From NCBI GenBank assembly GCA_963755715.1, contig CAVWLW010000073.1, positions 1 to 64,000 of the forward strand: a stretch of DNA of 64,000 bases, read 5' to 3'. The stretch is from an uncultured delta proteobacterium. Its GTDB lineage: Bacteria > Desulfobacterota > Binatia > UBA9968. Positions 38 to 48,873 of this stretch are shown in pieces. The position numbers were made by a program, and so were the translations under genes. The notes under the pieces were generated by a model that saw only the letters and a list, made by a program, of their open reading frames with translations, ran no database searches and was not told where the DNA came from. Numbering within the stretch: the first letter of the stretch is position 1; every line of letters starts with the position of its first letter.

Positions 38-64
38 GTTACGCAAAAATGAATCTCACGTTAA
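38..64 (-). promoter_or_regulatory. Pho-box-like array (3 x 11-bp repeats) for a gene left of the window
   Basis: Minus strand TTAAC-gtgaga-TTCAT-ttttgc-GTAAC, then 10 nt and TATATT (27-22). Confidence 0.7.
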
Positions 65-102
65 CACTGCGCAGCGCGGCAGGTGTACTAAATGATCGGC
101 GC

Positions 103-276
103 CTACTTTACTCGCGGCGGAAGATCTGTTCTGGAATCGGCCGCAGCTCGAACCAGCCCGCTGTTTACGAAAGATTCGCGTTCAGCGCTGCTCAGCTGCA
201 AGACCATCACCAGAAATAAACTTGGAAATAACAGGGAGAAAAAAAGCCAGCCGAGCACTTTGAGGTAGTCCTTCAT
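103..276 (-). CDS. Small membrane protein (57 aa, one TM segment)
   Basis: GGAGG SD before ATG at 276; MKDYLKVLGWLFFSLLFPSLFLVMVLQL hydrophobic helix. Confidence 0.5.
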   Translation of the reverse strand: MKDYLKVLGWLFFSLLFPSLFLVMVLQLSSAERESFVNSGLVRAAADSRTDLPPRVK

Positions 277-341
277 CTTCAGACCCTCCGATAGCATTTG
301 AACTCGTGCCGCTTGCGTAACTTCAATCAGCGAAAAATCCA

Positions 342-375
342 GGGGAGCCGCCCGAAACGAACGGCTCCCCGTCAA
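342..375 (-). repeat. GGGGAGCCG...CGGCTCCCC hairpin, copy 1 (terminator or cis-RNA)
   Basis: Minus strand TTGACGGGGAGCCGTTCGTTTCGGGCGGCTCCCC; near-identical copy at 2879-2916. Confidence 0.7.
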
Positions 376-414
376 TCCAACATTCGCGATCTTTAGCGTC
401 GCAGATAACCCGCG

Positions 415-2665
415 CTATTGCGCGCAGGACACCGGGTTGGCGGCGCAACTGCTCACCTCTTCGAGCAACGCTTGAGCTTGATTGACCAACTGCCTTCCGC
501 GAACTTCATCAAAGACCTGGTCATTGAAGGCCGCCCCGTCGAGCATCGCTTTCATGTCTTGCGCGATCGCGTCACGCTGGTCGGTCCAGCTCACAATCTT
601 ATTTGTGAGCGCAACGTAAACGGCGTCATTTGTAGAGTCTCCGCTTTTAAGCGCGGCGGTGGAAACCTTCAGGCTGTCCATACCGAGCTGACCGAAAGGC
701 GCGTTGATTTGTTTATAAATATTGGCGAATTCCCCCAGGGTCTGGGCGTGGCCGCGCAAACGGACGGGCTGGACATTCTTATCAACAGCTTCGGTCAACA
801 CGCGGCCGTCGTGAATGTAGCTATCCTGCAGTCCAAGAAGAGAAAGCATCGTCGGACGAACATCAGTGTGGTCGGACCAAGTGCTGTCGTCTTGGCCGCC
901 GGTGCTTACCCCCGGCCCGACCAGTCCTAGCCAGATGGTGGCTATCTCAGGCTGAATTCCGCCGTGGTTCCACGCAAACGTGGACGTCGGCGGGGTCGTC
1001 GGCACGGTGATGCAGGGCGAGGTGCAGTTCGCCGCGCCGGTAAAAAGGAAGTAATCCGGCTGGGCAAACATCGCGAGCGTCGGCGTTCGCTGTGGGTCGG
1101 CGGTGACCATGTGTAAGAGGTCCATTGCCACCGGGTCGGCAAGGGCGGCGGTCATAGTATCCGTCTGGCCCGTGTAGGGGTTGACTGCCGTGAGCTTGGA
1201 GACGGCGCGGCCGAACGCACGTGCGATGGAGCTTGTTGGTGACGGGTTGCCGGTGACGTAGATCGTCGGCGCCATGTCTGCATGAACAGTGAAAGGCGTT
1301 GTGATCCCTTGCTGGGTCGCCAGCAAGCCCGTTAAATTCCCGTTGACCTCGCCAACGAGGCTGTACGTGCACGGAGTTTTCACGCCATCACAATTAGGAT
1401 TTGTCGGCTGCGAGCCGACAAAATGGTCGCCTTCCTCGACGGTAAAAACAAAGAGCGTGTTGCTCTTGTTGATCCCGTGGGCCGCCAGCCGATCGAAGAA
1501 CTTGCCGAACGCCTCGTCATAATTTTTCAACTGCTGAACATAGTCCGCTTCACCAGGACCACGGGTCGCATGGATTTCGCCCGCGATACCGTGCTGGTCG
1601 TGCGCGTCCGAGATGTAGCCGAACGTGACCGGAATCCCAGCCTCCTGCATCTGCGCGATGTAGGCGAGTGTGGTGCTCGCGAACAGCCCATCGAACCCCG
1701 GAAAGCCCGGCTGGTTGAATTGGTCGGTGATCGGCTGGCCATTGAGATTGTTCACCGCCGTGCTGCCGCTGTGATGGCGGGATTCACGTATTTCCCTCCG
1801 AACAGGCCGAGGTGGCCGTTGTAGCCGCCCGGTTCGTCGGGCAAGAGGTCGGGCCGCGCGCGCGCATTGCCAGCGCAGATGCCGCCGCCCTTGCCGCAAT
1901 GGATCGCGAGGCCGACAAAGTCCGTCTGAGCAAGGTTTCGAGCCGCAGTGTTCGCCGCCGCTGCATTCGATGCCAGCGCTTCGGTGAATTCTGGCGAGCC
2001 TGCGCCAAAAACCTTTGTAATATCTCCAGTCGGGCCCGTGCTGGTATTCTCGAGAACGATGTTCGCCAGCGCCACCGCGCCGAAATCACAGCCGGCACGC
2101 GTATACGGCACCCAAGGCGCGGGTGCGTTCTTGGGCGTGCCGCTGTCCGCGTTCACCATGTTCGGGAGAGGATCGGCCGGAGGCGTTCCCGTATCGTCGA
2201 CCAGATCGGTCCAATACTTGAACGAAGAAGACGAAAGCGTGGTTCCGTCCGGCTTGAAATAACGGTACGAGTTGGCGACGGATTGCCCGTGCCGGTCTGA
2301 ATACATTCCAGTGAGGTTAGTCAAGATACCGTTAGCCGTGTGTGAGATAAGGACCGTGTGATTATTTGTCAACAGCGAGCCGTTGCCTCGAATAAAGTTG
2401 AGCAGATTCGGCATCTGCTCGAGATCCGATGGCACGTTCGGGTTGTCGCGCAGGAAATGCAGTTATCAAAGATGAGGAAGATGACGTGCTCAATGTTACC
2501 TTTCTCCGAGTTGAGCCGGCAGGCGCTGCTTGAAGCCTTCTTGCCGGGTTGAGCCGCCAAGCTCACTTCACCGGTTAAAACCACCATAGCGACGACGGAA
2601 AGAAAAATCTTGAGAAAATGAAAAAGATCCCTGTGCTTAATCATGCCGAAAAGTCGTGTTTGCAT
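415..2665 (-). CDS. Secreted alkaline-phosphatase-superfamily protein, split by two frameshifts (~2460, ~1755)
   Basis: AGGAGG SD, signal peptide, HVIFLIFDN start motif, SHTA, EEGDH, WNHGG, DHTDVRPTMLSLLGL...DGRVL; ORFs 2369-2665, 1752-2435 and 415-1899 join in sequence. Confidence 0.75.
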
Positions 2666-2732
2666 TGTCTTGCCTCCTGTTGGAATACTCGTCGTTGTCG
2701 ACGATGATATCGGACAAAAGAATCAACTCCCG

Positions 2733-2822
2733 TCAGCCGTAAACACTCACGACGACGGTGCCGAGGATTTCGAATAGGACACAAAGAAACAGCCACATGA
2801 TGAGCGGTATGTTTTCCCGCAA
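2733..2822 (-). CDS. Small hydrophobic ORF, 29 aa (MRENIPLIMWLFLCVLFEILGTVVVSVYG), below the ORF-track size range
   Basis: AGGGAGGT SD 6 nt before TTG start; single TM-like stretch; TGA at 2735-2733. Confidence 0.5.
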   Translation of the reverse strand: MRENIPLIMWLFLCVLFEILGTVVVSVYG

Positions 2823-2878
2823 GAAACCACCTCCCTTTTGTTTTGCCTCTCAAATGTCACCGCTCCCCCGAAGCCAGG

Positions 2879-2916
2879 TGGGGAGCCGTCCGAGACGAAA
2901 GACGGCTCCCCGGTCA
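2879..2916 (-). repeat. GGGGAGCCG...CGGCTCCCC hairpin, copy 2, in the leader downstream of a Pho promoter
   Basis: Minus strand TTGACCGGGGAGCCGTCTTTCGTCTCGGACGGCTCCCC. Confidence 0.7.
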
Positions 2917-2955
2917 ACGCGGGACGCGGAGTTGGACGCACGATAAGCGCATATT

Positions 2956-2993
2956 GTTACCATTGGGTCACCGCCAAATGATCTTTTGATGAA
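2956..2993 (-). promoter_or_regulatory. Pho-box-like array (4 repeats) upstream of the sORF and phosphatase
   Basis: TTCAT-N6-ATCAT-N6-GTGAC-N6-GTAAC, then 10 nt and TATCGT. Confidence 0.7.
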
Positions 2994-3009
2994 CCGGCCT
3001 CAGGCACCG

Positions 3010-3297
3010 CTATTTCCCGCCGTTGGCCAACGGCTGATCCAGCTCGATAATGATGAACTCGTTGTCATCAGGTTTGCCTGAACCGGCGTGTCGTCCGACA
3101 CTGAATGGGAAATTATTGTCGTCATGACACCGATGTGTTTGTGATCGAAGACGACAACATCTTCGATGTGTTAAATCGGAACCTGCGAAATGAAATCCCG
3201 TGCCCACGTCGCCAGCCAGCACGGGCTCCGAAAGCCGGTGCGTATCTTTAATATTCATGAGATCGACGAAGCCGATGAAAAATCTTACTCGTTTCAA
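3010..3297 (-). pseudogene. Internally deleted remnant of a phytase-like esterase (PF13449-type) gene
   Basis: N-terminal MKRVRFFIGF joined to a C-terminal tail; alternate frame gives IEDVVVFDHKHIGVM then DNNFPFSVGRHAGSGKPDDNEFIIIEL, the typical NDNNFPFSxGR..PDDNEFI ending. Confidence 0.65.
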
Positions 3298-3358
3298 ACA
3301 TATTCGTTCCTCCCGTTGAAAAAGATTTTGTGAAACGGATCGAAACTACGGCGAAAAT

Positions 3359-3407
3359 ATTAACGAGAGATGACGGTGGGTAAACTTAACAATGAATATC
3401 TAGTGAC
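3359..3407 (-). promoter_or_regulatory. Pho-box-like array (5 repeats)
   Basis: GTCAC-N6-TTCAT-N6-GTTTA-N6-GTCAT-N6-TTAAT, then 10 nt and TAGTTT. Confidence 0.7.
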
Positions 3408-3500
3408 GGGACGAAGAAGTTGCTATTCGGCAAACGAGAAACAATGAGCGATTAATTCTAATCGACACGTCGAAGGGAATTGCGAGGCTTAAGGGATCGG

Positions 3501-5580
3501 TTAAGCCGACAAGAGAATGGTTGGTCCGTCAGACGACGAAGCAACGACTTGGTAAAGCCGCTCCTGGGAGCGCAGCGGAGTGCCGTCAGTTGTTCGCGCG
3601 CGCAGGTAATTTCCATCGGATTGCATCCACCAACCCTTCACGTTGTCGGCCAGCTGAGTTTCGAGAATCTCTTTTAGTCGGTTTTGCAGCGCCGGCTCGA
3701 TAATCGGAAACGCAATCTCCACGCGCCGGTCGAAATTACGCTGCATCCAGTCAGCGGAGGCGAGCAAATAAACTGGCTCGCCGCCATTTTGAAAGTAGAA
3801 AACGCGCGCGTGCTCGAGATATCGATCGACAATGGAAAGCACGCGGATGCGCTCCGAGATGCCGGCGACGCCCGGCCGCAGGCTGCACATGCCGCGCACC
3901 AACAGATCGATTTGCACGCCGGCTTGGCTCGCCCGATAAAGCTCCTCGATCACTTCGGGATCGATCAGACTGTTCACCTTAACGATCACGCGCGCCGGGC
4001 GCCCGGCGCGGGCATGGTCCGCTTCTTTGCGGATTTGCGCAAGAAAATAATCTCTCAAGCCAACCGGCGCGAGCAGCAAATGATTGAATTTCTGCGGCCG
4101 CGTGTAACCGGTGAGTAAATTGAAAAGTTCGGTCAGATCTTCGCCAAAAGTTTTCCGGCACGTAAACAGGCCGAGGTCGCTATAGACACCGGCCGTGCGC
4201 GCGTTATAGTTGCCGGTAGCGAGGTGACAATAGCGGCGAATGCCGTCGACTTCCTGACGCACGATCAAACACACTTTGCAGTGAGTCTTATAACCGACTA
4301 ATCCGTACACCACGTGGGCCCCGACTTTTTCCAAGGCGCGCGCCCAGGTGATGTTGGCTTCCTCGTCGAAACGCGCCTGTAGCTCGACCAAAACTGAAAC
4401 TTCTTTGCCTGCTTCGGCCGCACGCGCCAACGCTTGCACGATGGGCGAAGCCGGACTGACGCGATAGAGCGTCATCTTGATCGCCAAGACCTTCGGATCC
4501 TTCGCTGCTTCTTCGACAAAGCGGGTCACCGCATCGAAGGTCTGGTAGGGATGAAATACCATGACGTCGCCGCTGCGTATGGCGCTCCAGATGTCCGGCG
4601 CGCGCTCGAGCGCGGAGATAGCGAGCGGGCTTTGCGGCCGGTCTTTCAAGCGCGGCGCGTTGATCGCGGCGTAGAGCTGAAACAGATCGGTAAACGCGGT
4701 AAATCCCGTGCCGGGGTAGAGATCTTCGACGCCGAGCTCGAGCTCTTCGACCAATTGCCCGACAATTTCTTTGGGCAACTCGGGATCGTATTGAAGCCGG
4801 ACCGCGTCGCCCATGCGCCGCTCGCGGATTCCTTGCTCGATCGTCGCCAGTAGATCCTCGTCGCGCCGCAGTATGCCGAAATCGGCGTCGCGCGTCACCC
4901 GAATCGCGTGACAAGAGATAATCTCAAAGCCGTGATAGAGCCGCGACAAATAATGGTGCAAGACGTCCTCCAACAGCATGAAGGCGTACTGGCCGTCGCG
5001 GCTTGGCAGCGGAATAAATCGCGGCGCCACTTGCGTCGGGATATGGACAATCGACAGATCCGTGTGCGGCAGGCGCGAGGCGATCCGTGTGCCGAGAGAA
5101 ACGACCAGGCAAAGTGAGCGATTCGCCAGATAGGGAAACGGATGTCCCGGATCGATGGCCAGCGGCGTGACGATCGGATACAAAGTGCGATGAAAATATT
5201 CTTCGAGAAATCGTTCCTGCTCACCGCTCATCTCTTCCGGCCGAACCAGATGAATCTCTTCGGCCGACAATTGCGACATAATGGTGTTGAGAAAACAGAG
5301 ATGTTGCTCTTCGGCAAGTTCATGAACCCGCTTCGAGATCGCGCTGAGCGTCTCTGCGTGAGTCCAGCCGTCCGGGCCGACGCTCAGGTCGCCGGCAAGG
5401 ATCAAGCGCTTGAGCCGCGCTACCCGCACCATAAAAAATTCATCTAAATTGGAACTAAAAATTGCCAGGAACTTGACCCGTTCCAGCACCGGCACGCTCT
5501 CTTGCTTCGCTTCTTCGAGCACGCGGCGATTGAATTCTAACCAGGATAACTCGCGGTTGATATAAGTAGTGGCGTCCATG
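3501..5580 (-). CDS. ppk1: Polyphosphate kinase 1
   Basis: YINRELSWLEFNRRVL, SNLDEFFMVRVA, ARFDEEANI, THCK phospho-His, RYLEHARV; start reassigned to MDATTY at 5580. Confidence 0.97.
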
Positions 5581-5681
5581 GGTTTGTGCTTTCTATGCGA
5601 AACTTTGAGGAGTATCGCGGAACTCTGCAGACGCATCCGTGCCATAAAGCCAAGCGTTTTAGGTGCGCCTGGAAGCCTAGT

Positions 5682-5708
5682 GTTACAAAAATGTGAACTT
5701 CTCGTTAA
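5682..5708 (-). promoter_or_regulatory. Pho-box-like array upstream of ppk1
   Basis: TTAAC-gagaag-TTCAC-attttt-GTAAC. Confidence 0.7.
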
Positions 5709-5880
5709 ATCGCTCACGTGAATGGAATTGTCGTAGCCCCTAAGGAAGGAAAAAAATTGCTCACTCTTTTTGGTTTCCGCAGCCCGCCGTGGTCGCGAAC
5801 GGCGCGCATCAGAGCGTCGCGCAGTGTGTCTGAGGCGCCAACAGCCGCTGTCCGATCAAGTGTGCGCTATCGAGAATTGA

Positions 5881-26521: not shown

Positions 26522-27325
26522 TCACTTTCGCGGTGTTAACACCAGCACCTGTTTGTCCGAATCAACTGACATTTGAAAGCGGCCGAGGAAGTCGAATCCC
26601 AACAAGCCTTCGTAGCCGAGCTCCATAATGCGATCGTGAATACTGACCTGCATATTTTTTATTTCAGCTCTGCCCACTCGGATGGCCTCGACCAAGCCGA
26701 CATCCACGTTGACAACACCGCCGATTCCGACTCTTTTTTGTGAGCCCATGGAGAGCAACCGGAGGTCCCTGGCGATCCGCTTCGATACCATGGTTTGGGC
26801 GGCACCCGTATCCACCGCCAGATAACCCGTTGTACTGCTGTTTCCGTTTTTGAACGTAACCGGCACGACAATCTTGGGACCGTCGATCTTAACGGGAATG
26901 GTGATTGGCCCCGTCACCGGCGTGGTCGAGACGGGGTCCGAACCCCCGCTAACAGGTCCGACGAGCGTGGAGTCCTTCGGCAACGAGCGAAAGTGGTCGT
27001 CGATTTTTGCCGCACCCATCTTATCGCCGGCCTTGACCCAACCCACATTGCCGTTTCTCGTCTTCACCATGAACCACTTCAAGCCGCCGGCGCCGGTCAT
27101 CTCGGCAATGGGTAATAGCGCCTTCCCGTCCGCCGCCGATTCGATGACGGGAGAAGACTCGTCGGCGCTGGCGAACACCTGCACCTCACCGCTCTGCGCC
27201 GCCGTCTGCGGGCTCGAGGCAGCGTCCGCATGACGCATGACGCTGAATAAACTCAGCACCACAAAGACCGCGGCCCTGAGTAGAAGTTCCCTTGGGTTTT
27301 TCGAGCGGGGTTGCAAGATCATCAT
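26522..27325 (-). CDS. Secreted retropepsin-like aspartyl protease with N-terminal SH3-like domain
   Basis: GAGGAG SD, signal peptide, WFMVKTRNGNVGWV, AVDTGA, GLLGFDFL. Confidence 0.8.
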   Translation of the reverse strand: MMILQPRSKNPRELLLRAAVFVVLSLFSVMRHADAASSPQTAAQSGEVQVFASADESSPVIESAADGKALLPIAEMTGAGGLKWFMVKTRNGNVGWVKAGDKMGAAKIDDHFRSLPKDSTLVGPVSGGSDPVSTTPVTGPITIPVKIDGPKIVVPVTFKNGNSSTTGYLAVDTGAAQTMVSKRIARDLRLLSMGSQKRVGIGGVVNVDVGLVEAIRVGRAEIKNMQVSIHDRIMELGYEGLLGFDFLGRFQMSVDSDKQVLVLTPRK

Positions 27326-27444
27326 TAGGTTTGATCTCCTCGTGTTTTTTGTGGCCGGCACCATGGGGCGCGATCCGATATCACCAATCGTTTGAGAACG
27401 CCACCTAGTCGGTGCGCGCAGCGGTATTCGCGAATCCAATGGCC

Positions 27445-28775
27445 TCATGCGCCGGCAAGCTCCGTCGGTAACCGCCATCTCCGGCTTTTCGATACTCTGC
27501 CTGTCGATCGTCAATGCGACGCATGCGGCGATCAAACCCAGACAACCGCCAACAAGAAAAGCATATTGATAATCGCCGAAATGAACGCGCGCCCAGCCGC
27601 CAAGGATCGCCGCGGACGCGCCGCCAAGTTGATGGAAGACGAAAACCAAACCGAATATTCTACCGACTCCTTCTGATCCGAAGCTGCGCGCGATGATCGT
27701 TGCCGTCGCCGGCCCGGAAGCGTACCAGTCGAGACCGTACATCACGGCGAAGACGAATAAACCGATCGGCTCAGACACAAACGGCAGAATAAACAGCGAC
27801 GATCCGCGCAGCGCGTAGACAACCGCGAGAACCTTGCGCGGATCGATGCGGTCGACCAGCCAGCCGGAAAATGTCGTGCCGATAAAGCTCGCGCCGCCCA
27901 TGATTCCGACCGCGGTCGCAGCGGTCAGTTGCGGAATGCCGCGCTCGATCGCATGCGGGATCAGATGCGTGCCGATAAGACCGTTGGCCGTAACACCGCA
28001 AATAAAAAAACAACCGCTCAAAATCCAGAAGGTCGAAGTTCCGAAAACTTCGGATAGAGTGGACATTGATATCGGACGAATCTCGCCCTGAGCGAAACTG
28101 CGCCCCCGCGTCGAGCCGCTTTCATCGGGCGAACGATACGGCTCGAGACCGACGTCGGCGGGATTATCGCGCATCCATAACCAAATGAATCGGAATCAAA
28201 AGCGCCGAGGCGGCTGCCATCGCCATCAGCGCGCTGCGCCAGCCGCTGCCAACGACCATCGCCATCAAGAGCGGCAAATAAATCACCTGCCCTGCTGCGT
28301 TGGCGTTGGTCATGATGCCGATCGCAAGACCGCGCCGGCTGACAAACCAGCGGCTCGCGATGCTCGCTCCCAATGCCGGCGTCACACCGGTTGCGATGCC
28401 CAGAACAATTCCCCACAAGACAATCAATTGCCAGAGCTCCTGCACAAAGACTGTTCCAACCAGGCCCAAGGCGATCGTCGTCAGGCTGCCGAGAATGACG
28501 CGGCGCGCGCCGATGCGATCGATCAGCCAGCCGCCGATCGGCGCAAACACTCCCAACAGCAAAAGATTCAAGCTCGCCGCCGACGCGATCGCCGTGCGGC
28601 TCCAACCGAATTCGGCTTCCAGAGGATGAATCAGCACCGACGGCGCCGAGCGAATCCCGGCGGCGGTCAAGTTGGCGAGAAAACTGAGCGCGACTATGAA
28701 CCAGCCGTAGTAAAACGGGACGAAAATCGGCAACCGCGCCACGCCGGATTTTTCAACTTCGTGATTCATGGCCAT
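27445..28775 (-). CDS. MFS transporter (OFA/YbfB-like), frameshifts ~28180 and ~27465
   Basis: FYYGWFIV, LEAEFGWSR, WFVSRRGLA, FFICGVTANGLIGTHLIP; pieces in ORFs 28164-28775 and 26522-28174. Confidence 0.8.
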
Positions 28776-32311: not shown

Positions 32312-33010
32312 TTAGTCAACGATCCTCACACGCGTATCTTGCGTTGGGGTTTTCTGGATCGGCGGGATGAAAGTCGCCGTGCGGCCGTCTTTCGCGGTTA
32401 TCACGAGGCTGTAGTCCAGCTTGCCCAACGGGTAATCTGGCGGAATGTCCCAAAAGGCATCCCACATCCAAGCCGAATCGGGCAGGGCGGTTGCAGATCC
32501 TCGGATGGCCCATCGCGCGACCAGTTCTTCGCCATGCGGTAATCTTACCTTGACTGTTGCTCCATCTCGATCGGCAACCCGCTTACCCGTCGAGGTGTCG
32601 AGGATCTCGAAGCGAAAGACGAGCCTCATGCCACGCTTGAACACGCCGCTTTGGACACACGGTGTAGATGCGGCGACGCCATATTTGGTGGTGTTATTGC
32701 TCGTCAAAGTTTCCACATAGAAGAAGAATGGACCCACCGGCTCATAGTAGGACGCGGGCGTCGTGCGCGGCGGTTGAGGAGGTGGAGGGCCAGCCGTGGG
32801 CGGCGGCGCCTTTTGCGCCCCGACGAGGACCGTGACACCAGCCTCCGTGGAGGATTTCTTTTGCAGCTCCGTGGCGGAGACTTGCTCCTTTGCTTTATCC
32901 TGCTCGCTTTGCGTGGCTACGGATGGCCCACAGCTCGCGATCATCCACGGGATAAGAATTAGCAATACAACGAAGATCAGGCTTCGATTGAGCGGTCCGA
33001 ATAATGCCAT
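32312..33010 (-). CDS. Hypothetical lipoprotein
   Basis: Lipobox-like IASC, Pro-rich linker, WDIPPDYPLG beta domain. Confidence 0.7.
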   Translation of the reverse strand: MALFGPLNRSLIFVVLLILIPWMIASCGPSVATQSEQDKAKEQVSATELQKKSSTEAGVTVLVGAQKAPPPTAGPPPPQPPRTTPASYYEPVGPFFFYVETLTSNNTTKYGVAASTPCVQSGVFKRGMRLVFRFEILDTSTGKRVADRDGATVKVRLPHGEELVARWAIRGSATALPDSAWMWDAFWDIPPDYPLGKLDYSLVITAKDGRTATFIPPIQKTPTQDTRVRIVD

Positions 33011-39328: not shown

Positions 39329-39485
39329 GATCTCCTTGGCGGCAACCTTTCGTTTGTCTGTGGGAATTGGCCCATAGGCCCGAAACTACTACATCCGGTT
39401 GTGTGCTTCCACAATCGACCGGCCAGAAATCTCACTCACGACGACGCCGATCACACGGACAACTGGCCTGTCCCGAGTCGAGCAA

Positions 39486-39539
39486 GTAACCGCAGCTTAA
39501 CCTGTGCTTAACCAATCCGTAATCAAATTTTAGTATTAT
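39486..39539 (+). promoter_or_regulatory. Pho-box-like array (4 repeats) plus -10
   Basis: GTAAC-N6-TTAAC-N6-TTAAC-N6-GTAAT, then 10 nt and TATTAT; core CTTAACCTgtgCTTAACC. Confidence 0.8.
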
Positions 39540-39582: not shown

Positions 39583-40941
39583 ATGGCGCAGGTTAAATTG
39601 GACATGCCGTACTTGAAAATTATCCCGCCTGGGTTTTGGTTCGTACTGTTCATTGCCTTCGCCGCCCACCCGGCGCTGGCGCAAAATAAGGTGATCGCAA
39701 CCTACACATTCCCCGAAATACCGATCAAGGAGTTTCAAAATAAGAAATTCCCCGGTTCCGTCGCCAACGACCATAAAGTTCTCTTGGGCTCGGTCGGCAG
39801 CGACCTGTGGCACGACCCGAAAGGTCCGCGTGACGAATTTTGGATGTTGACCGATCGGGGGCCCAATGGACAAATCGCCGTTGACGGAAAGAACCGGCGC
39901 ACTTTTTGGGTACCGGAGTTCGATCCGACGATCGTCAAAGTCAAACCCGAAGGTAAAGCGATCCGAATCCTAGAGGCGATTCCAATTGTCGGCCAATCGG
40001 GCAAGCCCATAACCGGAATGCCTAATCTCAAAGATGTCGACGAGACACCGTACAATTATTCGGCGCAGGAAGTGCTGCCTTTCAATCCCAACGGCCTCGA
40101 TACCGAAGGTCTGGTCCGCACCGCCGCCGGTGATTTCTGGATCGCCGATGAGTATAGCCCATCACTCGTGCACGTCGACCGAACGGGTAAGGTCATTAAA
40201 CGCTACGTGCCCGAGGGACTGAAACTCGAGGGCACAGACTATCCGGTTGCGAAAGTTTTGCCGTCGATCTACGGCAAAAGGAAGATCAATCGCGGCTTCG
40301 AAGGACTGGCGCTGAGCGCCGACGAAAAGACACTCTATACCGTGCTGCAAAGCCCGCTTTTGAATCCCGACCGTAAAATCGGCGATACCTCGCGCAACAC
40401 CCGAGTGCTGGTATTCGACATCGCCAGCGAGAAAGTTACCGCCGAGTACGCCTACCGCTTCGACGTGTCGACGCAGTTCGATCCCAATCCCAAAAATACC
40501 CCCGACGAAATGAAGCTCTCGGGCGTGATCGCGATCAATCCGACGACGTTGCTCGTGCTCGAGCGCACCGATCTGGTCGCCAAGCTTTATAGTGTCGATT
40601 TCAGTGAGGCAACGAATATTCTGAATAGCAAATGGAATGACGCCCAAACGGCTCCCTCCCTCGAAGCGCTGAGCGATCCGTCGGCCGCGGCGGTGCGGAC
40701 GTTGCCCAAAACACTGGTCGTCGACCTAAGCTCTCTCGACGGTGTGCCCGAAAAGATCGAAGGCATCGCTTTGCTCGACGCGCAGACTCTTGCGATCTCG
40801 AACGACAATGATTTCGATAGCGAAGAAAGCAAATACGACAGCGAGGGCAATAATCTTGGCAAAGGCAAGAAAAGCCAGATCCTCTTGATCTCTCTCGACA
40901 AACCGCTGCCTTTACCGAAAGCCACCGTGTCCGCCCGCTAA
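39583..40941 (+). CDS. Esterase-like activity of phytase family protein (PF13449-type)
   Basis: TDRGPN, LDTEGL, DEYSP, NRGFEGLA, EKIEGI, NDNDF. Confidence 0.9.
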   Translation: MAQVKLDMPYLKIIPPGFWFVLFIAFAAHPALAQNKVIATYTFPEIPIKEFQNKKFPGSVANDHKVLLGSVGSDLWHDPKGPRDEFWMLTDRGPNGQIAVDGKNRRTFWVPEFDPTIVKVKPEGKAIRILEAIPIVGQSGKPITGMPNLKDVDETPYNYSAQEVLPFNPNGLDTEGLVRTAAGDFWIADEYSPSLVHVDRTGKVIKRYVPEGLKLEGTDYPVAKVLPSIYGKRKINRGFEGLALSADEKTLYTVLQSPLLNPDRKIGDTSRNTRVLVFDIASEKVTAEYAYRFDVSTQFDPNPKNTPDEMKLSGVIAINPTTLLVLERTDLVAKLYSVDFSEATNILNSKWNDAQTAPSLEALSDPSAAAVRTLPKTLVVDLSSLDGVPEKIEGIALLDAQTLAISNDNDFDSEESKYDSEGNNLGKGKKSQILLISLDKPLPLPKATVSAR

Positions 40942-41003
40942 ATCCGGCAATGCAGCGCGATCTTTTCGCCTGGTAAGGTCGAGAAAGCCGCAACAAGCAA
41001 CAC

Positions 41004-41041
41004 TTCAAGAAAAATTTACCTAAGCGTCGCCCACGCTTAAC
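41004..41041 (+). promoter_or_regulatory. Pho-box-like array upstream of GDPD
   Basis: TTCAA-N6-TTTAC-N6-GTCGC-N6-TTAAC. Confidence 0.55.
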
Positions 41042-41093
41042 GCGGATGGGCGAATAGGAACCAGCAAATTTGACAGCGAAAGGATTGGTTCCT

Positions 41094-42407
41094 ATGCACA
41101 AACATCAACGACAATTCAAACAGCCACGCGGCGCATCGAGATATGACGACCCGCTCGATTTCGTCGCGCGATTTACCCCGCCGAGCGAAGCTTGGTTACG
41201 CAGCGTTTGCTGCTTGCTCTTTCTGCTTCTGGGCGCAACGCCCGCCGTGGCCGCCCCGCACGACGAATTTCCCCATCCGTTGGTCATCGGGCATCGCGGC
41301 ACGCACGGCTATCTGCCGGCTCACACCTTGGCGGGCTACGCCTTGGCGATCGAGCTGGGCGCGGACTTTATCGAGCCAGACTTAGTCGCGACTAAAGATG
41401 GCCAGTTGATCGCGCGCCACGAGCCGAATCTGATTGCCACCACCGATGTCAGCCGACGGCCGGAATTCGCCAATCGCAAACGCAAAGCGATTATTGATGG
41501 TGCCGAAGAAGAAGGATGGTTCGCATCCGATTTCACTCTCAAAGAGATTAAAACGCTGAGGGTGGTTCAAGACTTCGCCGACCGGCCGCAAGAGTTCAAC
41601 GACTTGTTTGAAATCCCCACATTCGAAGAGGTGATCGCGCTCGCCAAGCGAAAATCAAAAGAAAAGGGCCGGACTATCGGCATTTATCCTGAGACCAAGC
41701 ATCCGACTTATCATAAGAGCCTGGGCCTGCCGCTGGAAGCGCGTCTGGTCAAGATCCTCAAAGCCGAAGGATGGGATCATCCCGATGCGCCGGTATTCAT
41801 CCAGTCGTTCGAACAAACCAACTTAAAAGAATTGCGCAAGATAACGCGCAACAGGCTCATTCAACTCGTTGACGCTAACGACGTGAACCCGGATGGCACG
41901 TTGGATTACACCGCGCCGTTTGACCGGCCCTACGACTGGACCGTTTCGAAGGACCCAAAGCTATTGAGCCGCACTTTTGGCTTTTTCGCCACTGACGAAG
42001 GGTTGAAGGAGATCAAGAGTTATGCCGACGGCATCGGTCCGTGGAAACGCTACATCGTAAGCACCGTGGCGGCAAACCTACCTGGGCCCGGCGAAGCGAG
42101 TCTCAAGCTCCTACCGCCGAACGATCTGATCGAGCGAGCGCACAAGGCCGGTCTGCTCGTTCACAGCTGGACTTTTCGCAACGAGCAGCGCCGTCTGGTG
42201 AGCGACTACGCGGGAAATCCGATAAACGAATACTTACAATTTTACGACCTCGGTATCGACGGCGTATTCTCGGATTTCGCCGACACCGCGGTCGCCGCGC
42301 GGGTTTTATTTAAGCTCGTGGACACTCCCGGCTTCGCGCGCTGTTTTACCGAGGGACCCGATAAGTTTCAACGCGCGGAGAGCTCCGACTGTTTGAATTT
42401 GGAATAG
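41094..42407 (+). CDS. glpQ: Glycerophosphodiester phosphodiesterase
   Basis: [46 protein letters not shown]; true start may be downstream. Confidence 0.92.
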
Positions 42408-42434
42408 CGGATCCTTTCTTCTTGGGGGCGAATC

Positions 42435-42472
42435 GAGGGAGGGCTGGACAATCCAGCCCCTCCCTCTTTTTA
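42435..42472 (+). terminator. Rho-independent terminator after glpQ
   Basis: GAGGGAGGGCTGGA-caa-TCCAGCCCCTCCCTC followed by TTTTT. Confidence 0.8.
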
Positions 42473-42521
42473 TTTCTTTCGATTTCTAGTCCTCGGACAC
42501 GCACCACGCTCGTGATGGGCT

Positions 42522-42575
42522 GTTACGCAGACTTCGTTCATTTGTAACCCACGCGACATATGCGTGGATTATTTT
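42522..42575 (+). promoter_or_regulatory. Pho-box-like array plus -10 upstream of the GT4 operon
   Basis: GTTAC-N6-TTCGT-N6-GTAAC-N6-GACAT, then 10 nt and TATTTT. Confidence 0.6.
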
Positions 42576-42616
42576 ACCGCAAGATCGAGGGCGCTCTTTC
42601 GGGTATTTAGCGCCTC

Positions 42617-43923
42617 ATGCGCGGCGTACCTGCGGTCGCGCACATGGCCATGACGATGATGATGCAGCCGAAAAATTTATCCGGGTCCCGATCCGAAGCG
42701 ACAAATCAGCGACACCTTTGTCTCGTCACGGAGACTTATCCGCCTGAAGTCAACGGCGTCGCTCAGACGATGGCGCACCTGATGGACGGTTTGCGCTTGC
42801 AGGGCTACTCGGTATCGCTGGTTCGGCCGCGCCAGCACAGCTTCGACGGCTCCGATTATCGTTATCAGCCCGGCGCCACATTGGTTCGGAGTCTACCGTT
42901 GCCCGGCTATCGCGGATTGCACATCGGCGTGCCCGCCAGCGCCGCGCTGCGGCGTTGTTGGACCGAGCGCCGCCCGGATATCATCTATGTCGCGACCCAA
43001 GGTCCGCTGGGCTGGTCGGCGGTTAGCACTGCGCGTCAGCTCGGACATACCCGTGTTCAGCGGCTTTCCACACCAACTTCGACGCCTATTCGAAGCACTA
43101 TCATGCCGGCTGGCTGCGCTTTTTGATCTGGCGCTATTTGTCCGCTTTTCATAACCGTACGGCCGGCACCTTGGTGCCCTGCGCCGAGCTGCGCGGTCGA
43201 TTGCAGGCGATGGGATTGCGCAACATCGGCGTGCTCGGCCGCGGCGTCGACGCTGAGCTATTCACGCCGCGCCGGCGCAATTTGGCCCTGCGGCGCGCCT
43301 GGCGCGCCGCGCCGGATGATTTGGTGGCCTTGTACGTCGGGCGGCTCGCGCCGGAAAAGAACCTGAACCTTGCCATAGAATCCTATCGAGCGATGCAGCG
43401 CGTCAACGCCGCCGTGAAATTCGTCCTCGTCGGCGACGGCCCGCTGCGCGCCGCGCTGCAAAAAAAACATCCCGATCTTATTTTCTGCGGCATGCGCACG
43501 GGCGAGCGATTGGCCGAGCATTATGCTTCCGCGGATGTCTTTCTTTTTCCGAGCGAGACCGAAACCTTCGGCAACGTAACGTTGGAAGCGCTGGCAAGCG
43601 GACTGGCCGTCGTCGCCTATGATTACGCCGCCGCGCGGCTGCACATCAAAAACGGCACGAACGGCATCCTCGTGCCTTATGGAGAGGCGCTCGCCTTCGT
43701 CGATGCCGCGGCGAAACTGGCGCGCGCACCTCAAGCGCTCGCTGACATGCGCCAACAAGCCCGCCAGCATGCCGCGTCTCTCGACTGGCAGCTAGTGGTT
43801 AAAAGATTCGCCGCGTTCCTGCTGGGCGATCCGGCGCGGCTTCCTAGTGCGAGCAGCGACAGGAAGGCTGAATCTATCGAGACCATACCGGCCTATTACC
43901 GGCGCGGCCTAACCTTGCCATGA
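42617..43923 (+). CDS. GT4 glycosyltransferase (Agt/MgtA-like glycolipid synthase), frameshift ~43050
   Basis: VTETYPPEVNGVA, FHTNF, RGVD, YVGRLAPEKN, SETETFGNVTLEALASG. Confidence 0.88.
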
Positions 43924-43942
43924 AAAACGGGAGGGCACAGAG

Positions 43943-46210
43943 ATGCTAATGGAAGACACAATCCAGCGGTGGACGGCCTGCGTCGATGCGCGCACGATCG
44001 AGACCTGTCGACTTGATTCGATGGACGGCTGGTTTCTGTTGGGCCTTTTTCTCCTTGTCTTGCTCGCGATCTACGCGTGCCGAAAGGTTTTGACCCTTAT
44101 CCTGACCTGGCGCGCGCTGGCTTGGCTGCCAAGCTTGTCGCGGCGCTTGTCGAATTGGGTGAAAGCGCGCGACTACACGGAAGAGGAATTTTTTCGCGCT
44201 GACGGCGCGGCAGGTCCGTGGGTTGAGCGACGCAAACAGGCTCTCGACCAGCTCGCCGCCCTTCTCCAGACGCAGCATCAACAGTCGATTGCTTGGGCCA
44301 AGGCGCTCTGCGACAGCTTTTCGGATCTCCGTTTCACCGACGCCAATCGAGTGCCGTTTCCCTTCGCGCGCGTGATGCGCGAAAAATTTAACCTTTGCTC
44401 CGTGGTCACGGCGTCGCAAGGTCCGCGACTAAAAAACCTCGACGGTCATTGGACGATCGACGTGAGCGGTTCCTATGGCGTCAACGTCGCGGGCTTCGAC
44501 CGTTACAAAGAGTGGATCGAAAAAGGTTGGGAGCGGGTCAAAGATCTCGGCGCGGTGTTGGGGCCGGTGCACCCGATCGTGGCCGACAATATTGCTAGGC
44601 TCAAGACCCTTTCGCACATGGACGAAGTGTCGTTTCACATGAGCGGCACCGAGGCGGTCATGGCCGCCGTGCGCCTGGCCCGTTTCAATACGCGGAGAAA
44701 ACTGATCGTCTGTTTTTCCGGTGCCTATCACGGCTGGTGGGACGGCGTGCAACCGGGGCTGGGCAGCGAGCGCCCCCTGGACGATTGTCTCACCCTCAAG
44801 GACCTCGATCCGAAATCGCTGGACGTGATCCGCCGCCGCGCGCGAGAAATCGCCGGCGTGCTGGTCAATCCGGTGCAATCGTTTCATCCCAACTCGCCGC
44901 CGCCCAACGATGCGATCCTGCTCACCAGCGATGTCCGGAAAACCGAGGACTCCACCGCGCGCTATGCCGAGTGGCTGCGCCAGTTGCGCGAACTGTGCAG
45001 CGCCTATGAGATTCCGCTGATTTTCGACGAAGTCTACTCCGGCTTTCGCCTCGCCCCTGGGGGCGCGCAGGAATACTTCGCCGTGCGCGCCGATATGGTC
45101 GTGTACGGGAAAACCGTGGCGGGCGGCCTGCCGATCGGCGTCGTGTGCGGCAAGAAAACACTGATGCGGCGCTTCGATCCGAAGTTGCCCATGCGCATCG
45201 CCTACGTTGTCGGCACGTTTTCCGGCCATCCGGGCGTGATGGGCGCGATGAACGAATTTTTGCGCTGGGTGAGCGCGACGGATACGGCAAAACTGTATGA
45301 GGAATCGAATCGGCGTTGCACCGAATGGGTGCGCGCGACCAATCAAAAATTGGTCGCTGCCACGCTGCCCCTGCGCCTGGTGAACCTGGCGACGATATGG
45401 ACGGTGCTCTTCAAAGAACCCAGCCGCTACAATTGGCTGCTGCAGTACTATCTGCGCGCCGAAGGGGTCACGCTCAGTTGGGTCGGCACCGGGCGCTGCT
45501 TAAGCAGCATGGACTTTACGAATGATGACTATCTTGCCTTGCAGGAAAAACTACTCAACGCCGCGCGCCAGATGAAAAGTGACGCCTGGTGGTTGACCGC
45601 AAAAGAATATCCGGGAAGGGAGAAAAATATGCGCACGCGTCTCATACGGGAAATGTTGGGGAGTCTGGTTCAAGTGCCCAAGCCTTTGACGACCTTTTAT
45701 GCGGAAGTGATGCGGCGAAAAGCAGACGATCATCACGCTTCGCACAGCAATGGAATCAACCAATTTTTTCATCTGTTGAGCTCCAGCGTCTTTATTTATT
45801 GCTACATTTTGGCGTTTGCCGATCTCACCACGGCGATGTGTTTAGGATTGGCTTCCCTGTTTGTGCGCCAATTCGGCCACGCGATCTTGGAGCCCCCTTG
45901 CCACGACAAGGAAGCTTTGCTGTTGGGTTACAACACGCGCAATAAGACGCTGATCGTGCTCGGCTATGTAGCGATTCCGATCGTTCAGATGATGCAGGCC
46001 GGCGCGTGGTCGCTGACGGTCTTTAGAGCGCTCATTGCTCCCATCGCGCTCAATTGGTTTCTTTGGACGCTGCTCGTAGTGCTCGGACGGGTAACTTATC
46101 TCGTGTGGAAACACGACTTTCGCATCTCGATGATTTGGTTTATCAAACTGATTACCGATCCTTTGACCGATATCTTTGCCTATTTTCCGCGCTGGCCGCA
46201 GCGCGCCTGA
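43943..46210 (+). CDS. Class-III PLP aminotransferase/aminomutase (HemL-like) with N-terminal TM and C-terminal Mpo1-like membrane domain
   Basis: SGTEAVMAAVRLAR, GAYHG, LIFDEVYSGFR, YGKTVAGGLPIG (PLP Lys); C-terminal HHASHSNGINQFFH and QFGHAILEPP. Confidence 0.85.
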   Translation: MLMEDTIQRWTACVDARTIETCRLDSMDGWFLLGLFLLVLLAIYACRKVLTLILTWRALAWLPSLSRRLSNWVKARDYTEEEFFRADGAAGPWVERRKQALDQLAALLQTQHQQSIAWAKALCDSFSDLRFTDANRVPFPFARVMREKFNLCSVVTASQGPRLKNLDGHWTIDVSGSYGVNVAGFDRYKEWIEKGWERVKDLGAVLGPVHPIVADNIARLKTLSHMDEVSFHMSGTEAVMAAVRLARFNTRRKLIVCFSGAYHGWWDGVQPGLGSERPLDDCLTLKDLDPKSLDVIRRRAREIAGVLVNPVQSFHPNSPPPNDAILLTSDVRKTEDSTARYAEWLRQLRELCSAYEIPLIFDEVYSGFRLAPGGAQEYFAVRADMVVYGKTVAGGLPIGVVCGKKTLMRRFDPKLPMRIAYVVGTFSGHPGVMGAMNEFLRWVSATDTAKLYEESNRRCTEWVRATNQKLVAATLPLRLVNLATIWTVLFKEPSRYNWLLQYYLRAEGVTLSWVGTGRCLSSMDFTNDDYLALQEKLLNAARQMKSDAWWLTAKEYPGREKNMRTRLIREMLGSLVQVPKPLTTFYAEVMRRKADDHHASHSNGINQFFHLLSSSVFIYCYILAFADLTTAMCLGLASLFVRQFGHAILEPPCHDKEALLLGYNTRNKTLIVLGYVAIPIVQMMQAGAWSLTVFRALIAPIALNWFLWTLLVVLGRVTYLVWKHDFRISMIWFIKLITDPLTDIFAYFPRWPQRA

Positions 46211-46249
46211 TCCAGCTTCGCCATATCTCAGGACGAAACACCTTGTCAC

Positions 46250-46786
46250 GTGAGTCTATGGATCTTTCTTTGTGCCGCGGCATTGCTGAGCCTGGAGCGG
46301 ATTTGCTACCTGTGGATTTGGCGCGCACCCGGAGCTTTCTGTGCCCTGTGCGCCCGTCCCGCAATCACGCGGATCGGCACGCCGGTCGATGTCTTACAGT
46401 TCCTTTTTTGTGGCTTCAAGATACTGCAATGCGCCGTGTTTCTCGCTTGGTGTTTTGCCTATGGAAACGGATCGCTGTGGCCGCCCAGCAGCGATCCGCT
46501 GTCCTTGACGCTTGGAGCGGCGCTCTTGATCGGCGGTCAAATCCTCAATATCAGCGTGTTCTATCGCCTGGGCAAGGTCGGGGTATTTTATGGCAATAAG
46601 TTCGGCTACCCAACGTCTTGGGTGCGCAAGTTTCCGTTTTCGTGTTTAAGACATCCCCAGTATATCGGCGCTTTGCTGTCCATCTGGGGGTTTTTCTTGG
46701 TGATGCGTTTTCCCCAGGACGATTGGTATATCCTGCCCGCACTCGAAACGCTGTATTACGTTCTCGGCGCGTATTGGGAGCAATAA
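46250..46786 (+). CDS. PEMT-family phospholipid N-methyltransferase (plant PLMT/Opi3-like)
   Basis: LN..VFYRLGKVGVFYGNKFG...WVRKFPFSCLRHPQYIG; ~4 TM. Confidence 0.8.
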   Translation: MSLWIFLCAAALLSLERICYLWIWRAPGAFCALCARPAITRIGTPVDVLQFLFCGFKILQCAVFLAWCFAYGNGSLWPPSSDPLSLTLGAALLIGGQILNISVFYRLGKVGVFYGNKFGYPTSWVRKFPFSCLRHPQYIGALLSIWGFFLVMRFPQDDWYILPALETLYYVLGAYWEQ

Positions 46787-46808
46787 TTGGAAACCTGCGC
46801 GACCCTGT

Positions 46809-47144
46809 TCAATGGGCACCGATGCAGCGCTTGCTTTCGGCTTCGATCTCCCAGGCCTGCAAGCATCTACGAATCCCATGCGCGCTCAAGCCGAGCACGG
46901 CGCATATGGACTCGAAGGAATACAGATCCTCGCGATCGTTTTGAAAAAACCACGCACGATCGGCTTTGAACAATTTATTCGGGTTATGCAAATTTTTGCG
47001 AAAGTTCAGCAAGGCATCCTTCAATACGGCCAGCATGAGATCGCACTCCGGAAGCGCATGTTCGTTGCTTCTAACTGTACGCCAAAAAATAGCGCTCTCC
47101 ACGTCGTCGCTTTCTGGGTATTGAATCGTTGAGATCAAATCCAT
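46809..47144 (-). CDS. Conserved hypothetical protein
   Basis: AAAGGAG SD; PExxLMLAVLxDA...W...FSFESICxVLGL pattern. Confidence 0.7.
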   Translation of the reverse strand: MDLISTIQYPESDDVESAIFWRTVRSNEHALPECDLMLAVLKDALLNFRKNLHNPNKLFKADRAWFFQNDREDLYSFESICAVLGLSAHGIRRCLQAWEIEAESKRCIGAH

Positions 47145-47255
47145 GGCGCTGCTCCTTTCCGATCGAATCTAGGCTCGCGCATTTCCGGCTACCGATCCCA
47201 ATGGCCGTCAAGATCGCGACACCGCCGTCAAAGGTCAGTATTGTGGATACCAACG

Positions 47256-47282
47256 GTTACGGTGAGATTAACACGCCGCTAA
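47256..47282 (-). promoter_or_regulatory. Pho-box-like array upstream of the 111-aa hypothetical gene
   Basis: TTAGC-N6-TTAAT-N6-GTAAC, then 10 nt and CACAAT. Confidence 0.55.
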
Positions 47283-47428
47283 ATTTGCCGACGTTTGCTC
47301 CGCCGCTTGAGCCGCCGAGCCACATCGGTAGCTTTATCTCGGTTCGGTTACAACGTTCCTGACAGCTACGATTTGAAGCTCAAACGGGCGCCACAGACAC
47401 TCCGCTGTCGCGTTCATTCGATTCCAAG

Positions 47429-47962
47429 TCAAAAACTCTCGGCGATCTCTCCAAGCACAGGCACTCGCCACACGGGTGTGGAACGCGTGGACTGATGAGG
47501 TTCGATCGAAAGAACCGGACAAGGCGCGTTCCTGCTGACAGTTTCAGCGATGCGGCGCGTGAAAAACCGAGTGAGCGCGCTTTTTTTGCGCCGGGACAAA
47601 ACGATCAGATCGACATCCTCCTGGATTGCTGCGACAACAATTTCCTCCGCCGCTCTACCCTGCCCTGCCCTGGGTTTCCACGCGACGCCGCTACTTTCAG
47701 CGCCGAACGTGGCACAGACAAACTGCCTCACGCGGTATTCGGCTTCCGTGAGAAGCTGATCCGTTTTGAACTTGGACAGCAGTTGCGACCATTGATAGTA
47801 AGGCTCCACTTCACAGCAAGCGTATTGGCTCAGACGGGGAAACAACGTCGCATGGAAAATAATCAGTTGAGCACGATTTTTTTTAGCCAGCGAGAGCCCG
47901 TAAGCAATCCCGTCTTTGGAATTGACCGTGAGATCCGTCGGGCAGAGAATTCTTTGACTCAT
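47429..47962 (-). CDS. Universal stress protein
   Basis: AGGAGG SD; RILCPTD, DVDLIVL, AETVSRNAPCPVL. Confidence 0.88.
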   Translation of the reverse strand: MSQRILCPTDLTVNSKDGIAYGLSLAKKNRAQLIIFHATLFPRLSQYACCEVEPYYQWSQLLSKFKTDQLLTEAEYRVRQFVCATFGAESSGVAWKPRAGQGRAAEEIVVAAIQEDVDLIVLSRRKKSALTRFFTRRIAETVSRNAPCPVLSIEPHQSTRSTPVWRVPVLGEIAESF

Positions 47963-48259
47963 TTTAAAACCTCCTGCAAAAATTAGGTCCACTCATCCAC
48001 GCTCGCTTTTCGTCGCGAGTACAGCTTGAAAGTCTTTATCGTCGGATGAATTACCTTAACTGATTTCTTGCTTGGTTAAAGAAGGCAGGGTTGCGGGTGC
48101 GCAGAAATCCGATGAAGTCTTTGTAAACGGCATGGAGAACAATAAAAACCAGGCCACGGAACCGGAGTCGAGAGATTACGAACCCGGCGTGAACGATCAC
48201 GGCCACTAAAGAATTGCGAGGCGAAAGTCCGGACACGGATGCCGAAGCAGTAAGCCGCG

Positions 48260-48796
48260 CTATGACGCCAGCAACCAAGACGCGACGTATCCGCCGATCA
48301 GGCCGCCGGCAATCACATCGGTAGGATAATGTAGACCGAGGACAACACGAGACAGCGCGATCAAACTGCTGGCGGGAATGAGCACAAGAGACAACTCTGC
48401 GTGGTGCGCGCCAGCGATCATAGAGAAAGCAACCGCGTGCATCGTATGTCCCGAAGGAAAACTGTATTGGTCGAGCGGTGCGGTGCCGAGACAGATCTCT
48501 TTGCTGACGACATCGGGTCGAGGTCGGCCGGTGAGATTTTTGACAGCCTTGTAGAGCGCCAAGTTGACGATGCCGACAATCACCATATTCCAGGAAGTCG
48601 CCAGCCCCTTCTCGCCGTAGATCAAGGGCAGTGCGACCATGAGCAAGTACCAAGCTTTGCCATCGCCGATCCAACTGACCAGGACAAAGAACTTTTTGAT
48701 TTTTGGCGCGCGGGACATACGGTTCAGCAGCCCGCAAACAACGATCTCACGGTCCGCGACCCATCTGACCAGCACAATCGATTGAACCTTACCCAT
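48260..48796 (-). CDS. PAP2 family lipid phosphatase
   Basis: KxxxxRPRP, SFPSGH, SRVVLGLHYPTDV. Confidence 0.92.
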   Translation of the reverse strand: MGKVQSIVLVRWVADREIVVCGLLNRMSRAPKIKKFFVLVSWIGDGKAWYLLMVALPLIYGEKGLATSWNMVIVGIVNLALYKAVKNLTGRPRPDVVSKEICLGTAPLDQYSFPSGHTMHAVAFSMIAGAHHAELSLVLIPASSLIALSRVVLGLHYPTDVIAGGLIGGYVASWLLAS

Positions 48797-48835
48797 AGGA
48801 GTTTCCCGACTCGGAAGAAATTTTCGCCGTTGGAA

Positions 48836-48873
48836 ATTGCATTCTCTTAAACGGGCGGTTAAATGTTCTTGAC
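48836..48873 (-). promoter_or_regulatory. Pho-box-like array upstream of PAP2
   Basis: GTCAA-N6-TTAAC-N6-TTTAA-N6-GCAAT, then 10 nt and GAAAAT. Confidence 0.65.

Follow-up and report, generated by a model that had tools for sequence, protein, structure and literature searches.

Which protein reads the pentamers that recur every 11 bp in front of genes on contig CAVWLW010000073.1 of an uncultured Binatia bacterium? We analysed the first 64 kb of this contig (C73; this full stretch is the window hereafter), which belongs to a genome of 7.4 Mb in 76 contigs. A first-pass annotation of the window had described nine arrays of such pentamers and had read them as a Pho regulon; all nine were recovered at the same coordinates and are named s1–s9 in coordinate order. 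These arrays are very probably Pho boxes, the operators through which the response regulator PhoB of this bacterium acts in phosphate starvation, and the window holds two clusters of predicted PhoB-type promoters, at 0–5.7 kb and at 39.4–48.9 kb. From DNA alone, they would provide a first and testable outline of the phosphate-starvation regulon in Candidatus Binatia, a soil lineage that is uncultured. No paper pairing Binatia or Binatota with a Pho box, PhoB or a Pho regulon was found among the top-ranked literature matches.

Each array consists of three to five head-to-tail units at an 11-bp period with the consensus c[T/G]T[A/C]A[C/T], where a PhoB-type operator has at least two direct repeats at this period. 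On the minus strand, s1 (38–64, within 22–67) reads TTAAC, TTCAT, GTAAC and is followed after 10 nt by TATATT (22–27); s2 (2956–2993, within 2940–2993) reads TTCAT, ATCAT, GTGAC, GTAAC, with TATCGT (2940–2945) at 10 nt; s3 (3359–3407, within 3343–3407) reads GTCAC, TTCAT, GTTTA, GTCAT, TTAAT, with TAGTTT (3343–3348) at 10 nt; and s4 (5682–5708, within 5656–5711) has three strong units, TTAAC, TTCAC, GTAAC, with TAAAAC (5656–5661) at a gap of 20 nt. The plus-strand arrays are s5 (39486–39523, within 39483–39539), the best site of the window, with GTAAC, TTAAC, TTAAC, GTAAT and then TATTAT (39534–39539) at 10 nt; s6 (41004–41041, within 41001–41057), with TTCAA, TTTAC, GTCGC, TTAAC and a weak -10, GAATAG, at 10 nt; and s7 (42522–42559, within 42519–42575), with GTTAC, TTCGT, GTAAC, GACAT and then TATTTT (42570–42575) at 10 nt. 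The minus strand carries two more, s8 (47256–47282, within 47240–47285; TTAGC, TTAAT, GTAAC, with CACAAT at 47240–47245) and s9 (48836–48873, within 48820–48873; GTCAA, TTAAC, TTTAA, GCAAT, with GAAAAT at 48820–48825), both hexamers again at 10 nt. Among the 33 units pooled from the nine arrays, T fills core position 2 in 31 and A fills position 4 in 29. There are 17 T, 15 G and one A at position 1, mostly A (17) or C (11) at position 3, and mostly C (19) or T (11) at position 5. The letters flanking the core hold almost no information.

The arrays had been said to be oriented with the downstream gene, and each indeed faces the next gene on its own strand, except s1, which faces off the contig end. 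The first cluster thus faces an off-contig gene (s1), a secreted esterase-like gene and ppk. The second faces a phytase-like esterase, a GlpQ-like glycerophosphodiester phosphodiesterase (GDPD), an operon for a glycosyltransferase, a pyridoxal phosphate (PLP) enzyme and a PEMT-like methyltransferase, a gene for a 111-aa protein, and a PAP2 phosphatase gene.

A TAnnnT-like -10 hexamer begins 10 bp past the end of the promoter-proximal unit, which sits where a -35 element would otherwise be. Seven -10-like hexamers had been named at exactly this distance, and every one of them starts 10 nt past the last pentamer. At a gap of 10, five of the nine hexamers start with TA and seven fit.A...T, whereas the same hexamer counts reach only 0–2 of nine at the other 14 gaps tested (4–18). 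The arrangement expected of PhoB, a proximal repeat 10 bp before the -10 in place of the -35, is therefore found at seven of the nine arrays, and not at ppk. Spacing was tested on its own because a combined score for array and -10 is insensitive to the gap: the hexamer adds few bits, and a gap of 8, 9, 11 or 12 hardly alters the match counts.

Such arrays are rare by chance. The strict pattern KTMAY-N6-KTMAY-N6-KTMAY matched four times in the window (s1, s4 and twice in s5) against 0.01 expected, none of 100 shuffles reached four, and the same pattern with N5 or N7 spacers had no match. With up to two mismatches there were 19 matches against 11.4 ± 3.7 expected (3 of 100 shuffles reached 19), and 14 of the 19 fell in eight of the arrays; the N7 control gave 12 matches against 10.6 expected. 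A histogram of word distances was also tried. Pairs of KTAAC peaked at 11 nt genome-wide (27 versus about 11), and a wider word set was swamped by codon periodicity, so matrices were used instead.

Two matrices were built. The window-trained matrix, from the 33 pooled units, was scanned over the whole genome, and the independent matrix was trained on 48 units and 13 hexamers, all taken from the pstS promoters of seven other genomes. The independent matrix found eight sites in the window at period 11, compared with 0–1 at periods 9, 10, 12, 13 and 14. One of the eight (32525–32570) is intragenic and probably a chance match; it is the sole match in the 7000–38200 region between the clusters, where no credible array was found. 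Array by array, we calculated how many sites scoring at least as well are expected per window, with the independent matrix and by leave-one-out. These expectations were, in that order, 0.01 and 0.01 for s5, 0.03 and 0.18 for s1, 0.16 and 0.22 for s4, 0.36 and 0.19 for s6, 0.37 and 0.74 for s8, 0.54 and 0.76 for s2, 0.47 and 5.6 for s7, 3.3 and 0.24 for s3, and 8.4 and 21.8 for s9. With leave-one-out values of 5.6 and 21.8, s7 and s9 are not separable from chance by their letters alone. The window is far denser in Pho-type sites than the genome at large, and the proposal that the motif is enriched held both over shuffles and over other spacings.

Scanning the whole genome with the window-only matrix led directly to phosphate genes. 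The four top-ranked sites outside the window lie before ppx (C47:21412–21444; Ppx-GppA in two pieces, then LMWPc, His_Phos and CHAD genes), 39 nt before pstS (C47:16166–16198), before a PF01663 nucleotide pyrophosphatase gene (C44:6812–6844) and before another PF01663 nucleotide pyrophosphatase gene (C23:1367–1399). The next ranks comprise a solute-binding protein and permease (C50) and, on C44, two arrays before a 181-aa gene with a universal stress protein gene behind it. Outside the window, non-coding DNA had 11 arrays that scored at least 18 at period 11, compared with 2–6 at each of nine other periods between 7 and 16. The motif was expected upstream of pstS if it is a Pho box, and two arrays are present there: the proximal one reads CTTAAC, CGTAAC, CGTAAC and has TAATTA at 10 nt, and the distal one has four units. 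PhoB-type sites thus precede pstS, ppx and the two pyrophosphatase genes outside the window, and ppk and the phytase-like, GDPD and PAP2 genes within it; as had been proposed, most targets serve phosphorus scavenging or polyphosphate metabolism, within the window and beyond it. Past about rank 10, both matrices also return intragenic and AT-rich sites that are chance matches; the sites ahead of an epimerase gene (C74:149643) and of a short-chain dehydrogenase gene (C67:85293) are examples, and none of these is claimed as a regulon member.

The regulator had been placed outside the window, and we found it on contig C47. An operon there runs pstS-pstC-pstA-pstB-phoU-phoB and then a histidine kinase, with phoB at C47:10821–11546 and the PhoR-like kinase beside it on the minus strand (C47:8627–10861; L012:628–2862). 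The best family model of the regulator is TIGR02154 PhoB. In its recognition helix, RTVDVHIRRLRKA, the regulator matches E. coli PhoB (PDB 1gxp and 3t72) at every position. A cognate PhoB with this DNA-reading helix is thus encoded together with phoR, phoU and pst. The kinase contains sCache-like, HAMP, PAS, HisKA and HATPase domains and a C-terminal low-molecular-weight phosphotyrosine phosphatase (LMWPc) domain; such a fusion of kinase and LMWPc is unusual for a phosphate sensor.

We then compared the arrays with those of relatives, using 30 same-genus genomes for the orthologue searches. At the pstS promoters of this genome and seven relatives (71–84% PstS identity), the proximal array is present in 8/8 and the distal array in 7/8, and all 15 arrays have a hexamer starting with TA exactly 10 nt past the last pentamer. 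The pentamers are kept across the eight genomes and the spacers vary. The phytase-like gene has a four-unit array 43–64 nt before its start in all four orthologues found, with TACTTT, TATTTT, TACCTT and TACCTT at 10 nt. The single GDPD orthologue, in genome G018, has an array that shares the odd GTCGC unit of s6, and both orthologues of the glycosyltransferase operon (G018 and G014) have arrays on the gene strand, the unit series in G018 being the same as that of s7. Both PAP2 orthologues have arrays ending in TTAAA/TTCAA-n6-GAAAT, like s9. For the 111-aa gene, two of the three closest orthologues have arrays, with ACATAG or GCATAG at 10 nt versus CACAAT here, and s2 has an orthologous array in G033. 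That relative, the best-aligning one at s1, begins to align with the window at position 63 and lacks an array at that place. In the 39.4–48.9 kb cluster, gene order and arrays are common to G018 and G014. Arrays scoring at least 14 with the window matrix occur only about 90 times in 14.7 million strand positions, or about once per 160 kb of strand, and the placements at orthologues are therefore not due to chance.

Could the arrays instead be operators of another OmpR-family regulator, unrelated to phosphate? OmpR-family regulators generally bind tandem repeats about one helical turn apart, and this genome encodes at least two more full-length members (C61:6739–7398 and C57:120049–120711). The recognition helices of these two differ at most positions, however, and the regulator of the pst operon is the only one in the genome with the PhoB-type helix, which answers the objection foreseen in the first-pass annotation. 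The best sites, moreover, precede pstS, ppx, ppk, three phosphodiesterase-type genes, the phytase-like gene and the GDPD gene. We consider an unrelated OmpR-type regulator very improbable, and prefer PhoB.

Several observations nevertheless weigh against the assignment to PhoB, or against the arrays as one set. The PhoB model scores 275.6 bits for the regulator, below its curated cut-off of 296.2. The "last" unit of each array was the choice of the first-pass annotation, which favours the 10-nt figure, and the last unit of s7, GACAT, is a poor one. A Pho unit has an information content of only about 5 bits, and outside the window the strict independent matrix gave 64 sites at period 11 versus 52–95 at other periods, so weak sites are not callable by matrix alone. 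s3, s7 and s9 are each weak in at least one of the two matrix tests. A DNA search of the 30 genomes for a counterpart of s3 returned one partial match that does not cover the array, and no -10 was found at 10 nt of ppk in this genome or in any of nine orthologues. RNA-library contigs from four soil runs (three studies) map to 39897–40586 and 41697–42082 with 95–99% likeness; they reach only the interior of the phytase-like and GDPD genes, are uninformative on start, strand and level, and the stretches they leave uncovered are no evidence against transcription.

On these grounds one may argue that only the strong arrays (s1, s4, s5 and perhaps s2, s6 and s8) are real and that s3, s7 and s9 are look-alikes in the AT-richer intergenic DNA. 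The expectations of 5.6 (s7) and 21.8 (s9) by leave-one-out and of 3.3 (s3) and 8.4 (s9) with the independent matrix speak for it, as do the two-mismatch pattern, which is only mildly above shuffles, and the missing counterpart of s3 in 30 genomes. Against it, the arrays of the glycosyltransferase operon and of PAP2 recur in 2/2 orthologues each, at the same place and with the same odd units (GTAAC n6 GACAY and TTAAA/TTCAA n6 GAAAT), with scores of 14.0–15.5, a level reached about once per 160 kb of strand; s3 itself has five in-phase units with its TAGTTT at 10 nt. We regard this restriction as unlikely, although it keeps a substantial share of probability. The claim of nine arrays as one set therefore stood in part: s1, s2 and s4–s8 stand firm on sequence, on conservation or on both, s9 is conserved despite its weak sequence, and s3 is uncertain. 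In other words, s7 (42522) and s9 (48836) were rescued by conservation and s3 (3359) was not.

The ppk promoter needs separate consideration. The genome has two ppk1 paralogues, 75% identical, one in the window (3501–5579) and one at C45:16435–18462, and only one of them carries a Pho-box array. For the window type (at least 79% identity), a three-unit array scoring 17–25 is present in 9/10 orthologues, 72–104 nt before the start, whereas the paralogue type has an array at only 1/8 loci. The best -10-like hexamer within gaps of 6–26 lies at 21 nt (10 + 11) in six of nine orthologues and at 20 nt in this genome, about a helical turn farther out than at the other arrays, a gap that fits a fourth, degenerate unit (CTTGG/CTTTG-like) beside the -10. 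Some arrays could instead be bound by PhoB without activating, and the one at ppk could repress or be transcriptionally inert. Ten of ten genomes have ppk promoters without a -10 at 10 nt, and many inert PhoB sites in E. coli are reported in the excerpted text of PMC10294691. Such a site seems quite unlikely to us, given that gaps of 20–21 nt suit a degenerate fourth unit with the usual activating geometry and that the array is kept in nine of ten orthologues at a similar place, 72–104 nt from the start.

Under the preferred reading, the promoters would work as in the E. coli paradigm. At low phosphate, the kinase encoded beside phoB would phosphorylate PhoB, which would bind head-to-tail with one DNA-binding domain per 11-bp unit; bound PhoB would then recruit the sigma-70 holoenzyme and switch the gene on. 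The promoters are built like the classical E. coli ones and the mechanism is already known. Because this type of promoter is textbook material, the result is tidy rather than surprising to a specialist. The likeness to E. coli PhoB promoters (1gxp; PhoB-sigma4-DNA, 3t72) covers the 11-bp head-to-tail units, the last of which ends 10 bp before a TAnnnT -10 in place of a -35, the identical recognition helix, and pstS as the flagship target. The core here differs in preferring [T/G]TAAC over TGTCAT, although GTCAC and GTCAT units do occur, the arrays have three to five units versus a minimal two, and the kinase carries the extra C-terminal LMWPc domain.

Repeats of the TTAACA type also make up the PhoP boxes of Bacillus subtilis. 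Pho boxes of 11-nt direct repeat units, with a core of CTGTCAT in E. coli and GTTCACC in Streptomyces, are described in the excerpt of PMC4415409, and the excerpt of PMC2275107 likewise gives 11-nt direct repeat units for Streptomyces PhoP. The arrays resemble Bacillus and Streptomyces PhoP boxes in having 11-nt direct repeat units in variable number, in simple and complex operators, and differ from the Streptomyces ones in the core. According to the excerpted part of PMC1906773, E. coli Pho boxes consist of 8-bp repeats joined by 3-bp linkers and are placed 10 bp before a -10 of the form TAN3T/A, and cyanobacterial SphR binds three or more CTTAACCT repeats. The first-pass annotation had pointed to the SphR box and to the 10-bp geometry, and both agree with that text. 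Here, too, at least three tandem 8-bp CTTAACCT repeats with 3-bp linkers are found, and the unit consensus, cTTAACc, is nearly the same. The 48 training units have C before the core in 33, an invariant T (48) and an invariant A (48), and C at the end of the core in 38. Unlike in the SphR box, the first core position here holds G about as often as T (19 and 29 times, respectively, in the 48 training units, and 15 and 17 times in the 33 units of the window). The host, moreover, is not a cyanobacterium: the likeness is drawn from the box sequence, and the best NCBIfam model of the regulator is PhoB.

The motif is not specific to this lineage, contrary to what had been suggested. TTAAC-type 11-bp arrays were found by matrix scan before pstS in loci of Bdellovibrio, Acidobacteria, Clostridiaceae, Cloacimonadota, Dictyoglomota, Desulfobaccales, Phycisphaerales and others (L028, L035, L055, L085 and further loci, with start positions only estimated from alignment), and the Phycisphaerales array has TAAATT at 10 nt. 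The pstS loci of Photorhabdus have the TGTCAT form. We conclude that the TTAAC form of the Pho box is widespread.

The predicted targets in the window are as follows. In the first cluster, s2 probably serves a secreted esterase-like gene (415–2665, minus strand) in three reading-frame pieces (2369–2665, 1752–2435 and 415–1899), which has only a faint likeness to the sulfatase/PehA (alkaline-phosphatase) superfamily. Past s3 there are only small open reading frames (ORFs; 3010–3303), and a family search with the ORF at 3010–3297 returned nothing useful. The target of s4 is ppk, encoding polyphosphate kinase 1 (3501–5579, minus strand). In the second cluster, s5 precedes the gene for the secreted phytase-like esterase (PF13449; 39583–40941, plus strand) and s6 that for the GlpQ-like GDPD (41070–42407, plus strand). 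The s7 operon (42617–46786, plus strand) encodes a GT4 glycosyltransferase, its gene split at about 43123, together with a membrane-anchored HemL-like PLP protein of 755 aa and a PEMT-like methyltransferase. The predicted target of s8 encodes the 111-aa protein (46809–47144, minus strand), which belongs to no Pfam or NCBIfam family, and that of s9 a PAP2-family lipid phosphatase (48260–48796, minus strand). A universal stress protein gene (47429–47962) comes next after the PAP2 gene on the same strand.

The regulon gives a physiological context to function-unknown genes, namely the 111-aa family, the 181-aa and 352-aa proteins of contig C44, the split esterase-like gene and the glycosyltransferase/PLP/PEMT-like operon. 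For the second cluster we offer a speculative and rather doubtful idea: the 39.4–48.9 kb region may be a conserved phosphate-starvation island, with an undescribed PhoB-induced pathway of membrane-lipid remodelling (GT4 glycosyltransferase, 755-aa HemL-like PLP enzyme, PEMT-like methyltransferase and PAP2 lipid phosphatase) at its core, alongside the phytase-like and GDPD scavenging enzymes, and with the 111-aa protein as a new small player in polyphosphate or Pho control. The 755-aa protein (43943–46210) combines a membrane anchor at its N terminus and three C-terminal hydrophobic segments with a HemL-like PLP domain at about residues 151–495. In G018 and G014, too, its gene stands between those for the GT4 and PEMT-like enzymes; the protein possibly takes part in lipid head-group chemistry. 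Family searches with the 111-aa protein returned nothing useful. It has many paralogues in the genus, and its nearest ESM Atlas cluster is an unnamed one of Binatota. The 111-aa protein is also encoded near the ppk orthologue in G014, and in G031 and G037 a weaker relative with about 40% identity is found close to ppk.

Outside the window, arrays form a further cluster at C44:6800–13800 (L009), before a split nucleotide pyrophosphatase gene, a gene for the 352-aa protein and the 181-aa gene (two arrays). Family searches with the 181-aa and 352-aa proteins gave nothing useful, the latter having a faint match to a twin-arginine translocation signal, below the family threshold. The 7000–38200 region between the two clusters of the window is packed with genes for NMT1/TctC-type solute-binding proteins, luciferase-like monooxygenases and amidohydrolases. 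Many genes are broken into two or three reading-frame pieces that overlap: those for the GT4 glycosyltransferase (42617–43923), the esterase-like protein (415–2665) and a major facilitator superfamily transporter (26522–28775) in the window, and the nucleotide pyrophosphatase gene (C44:6908–8612) and ppx (C47:19816–21365) outside it. These look like assembly indel errors or recent pseudogenes; the orthologues of the split genes in G018 are single ORFs.

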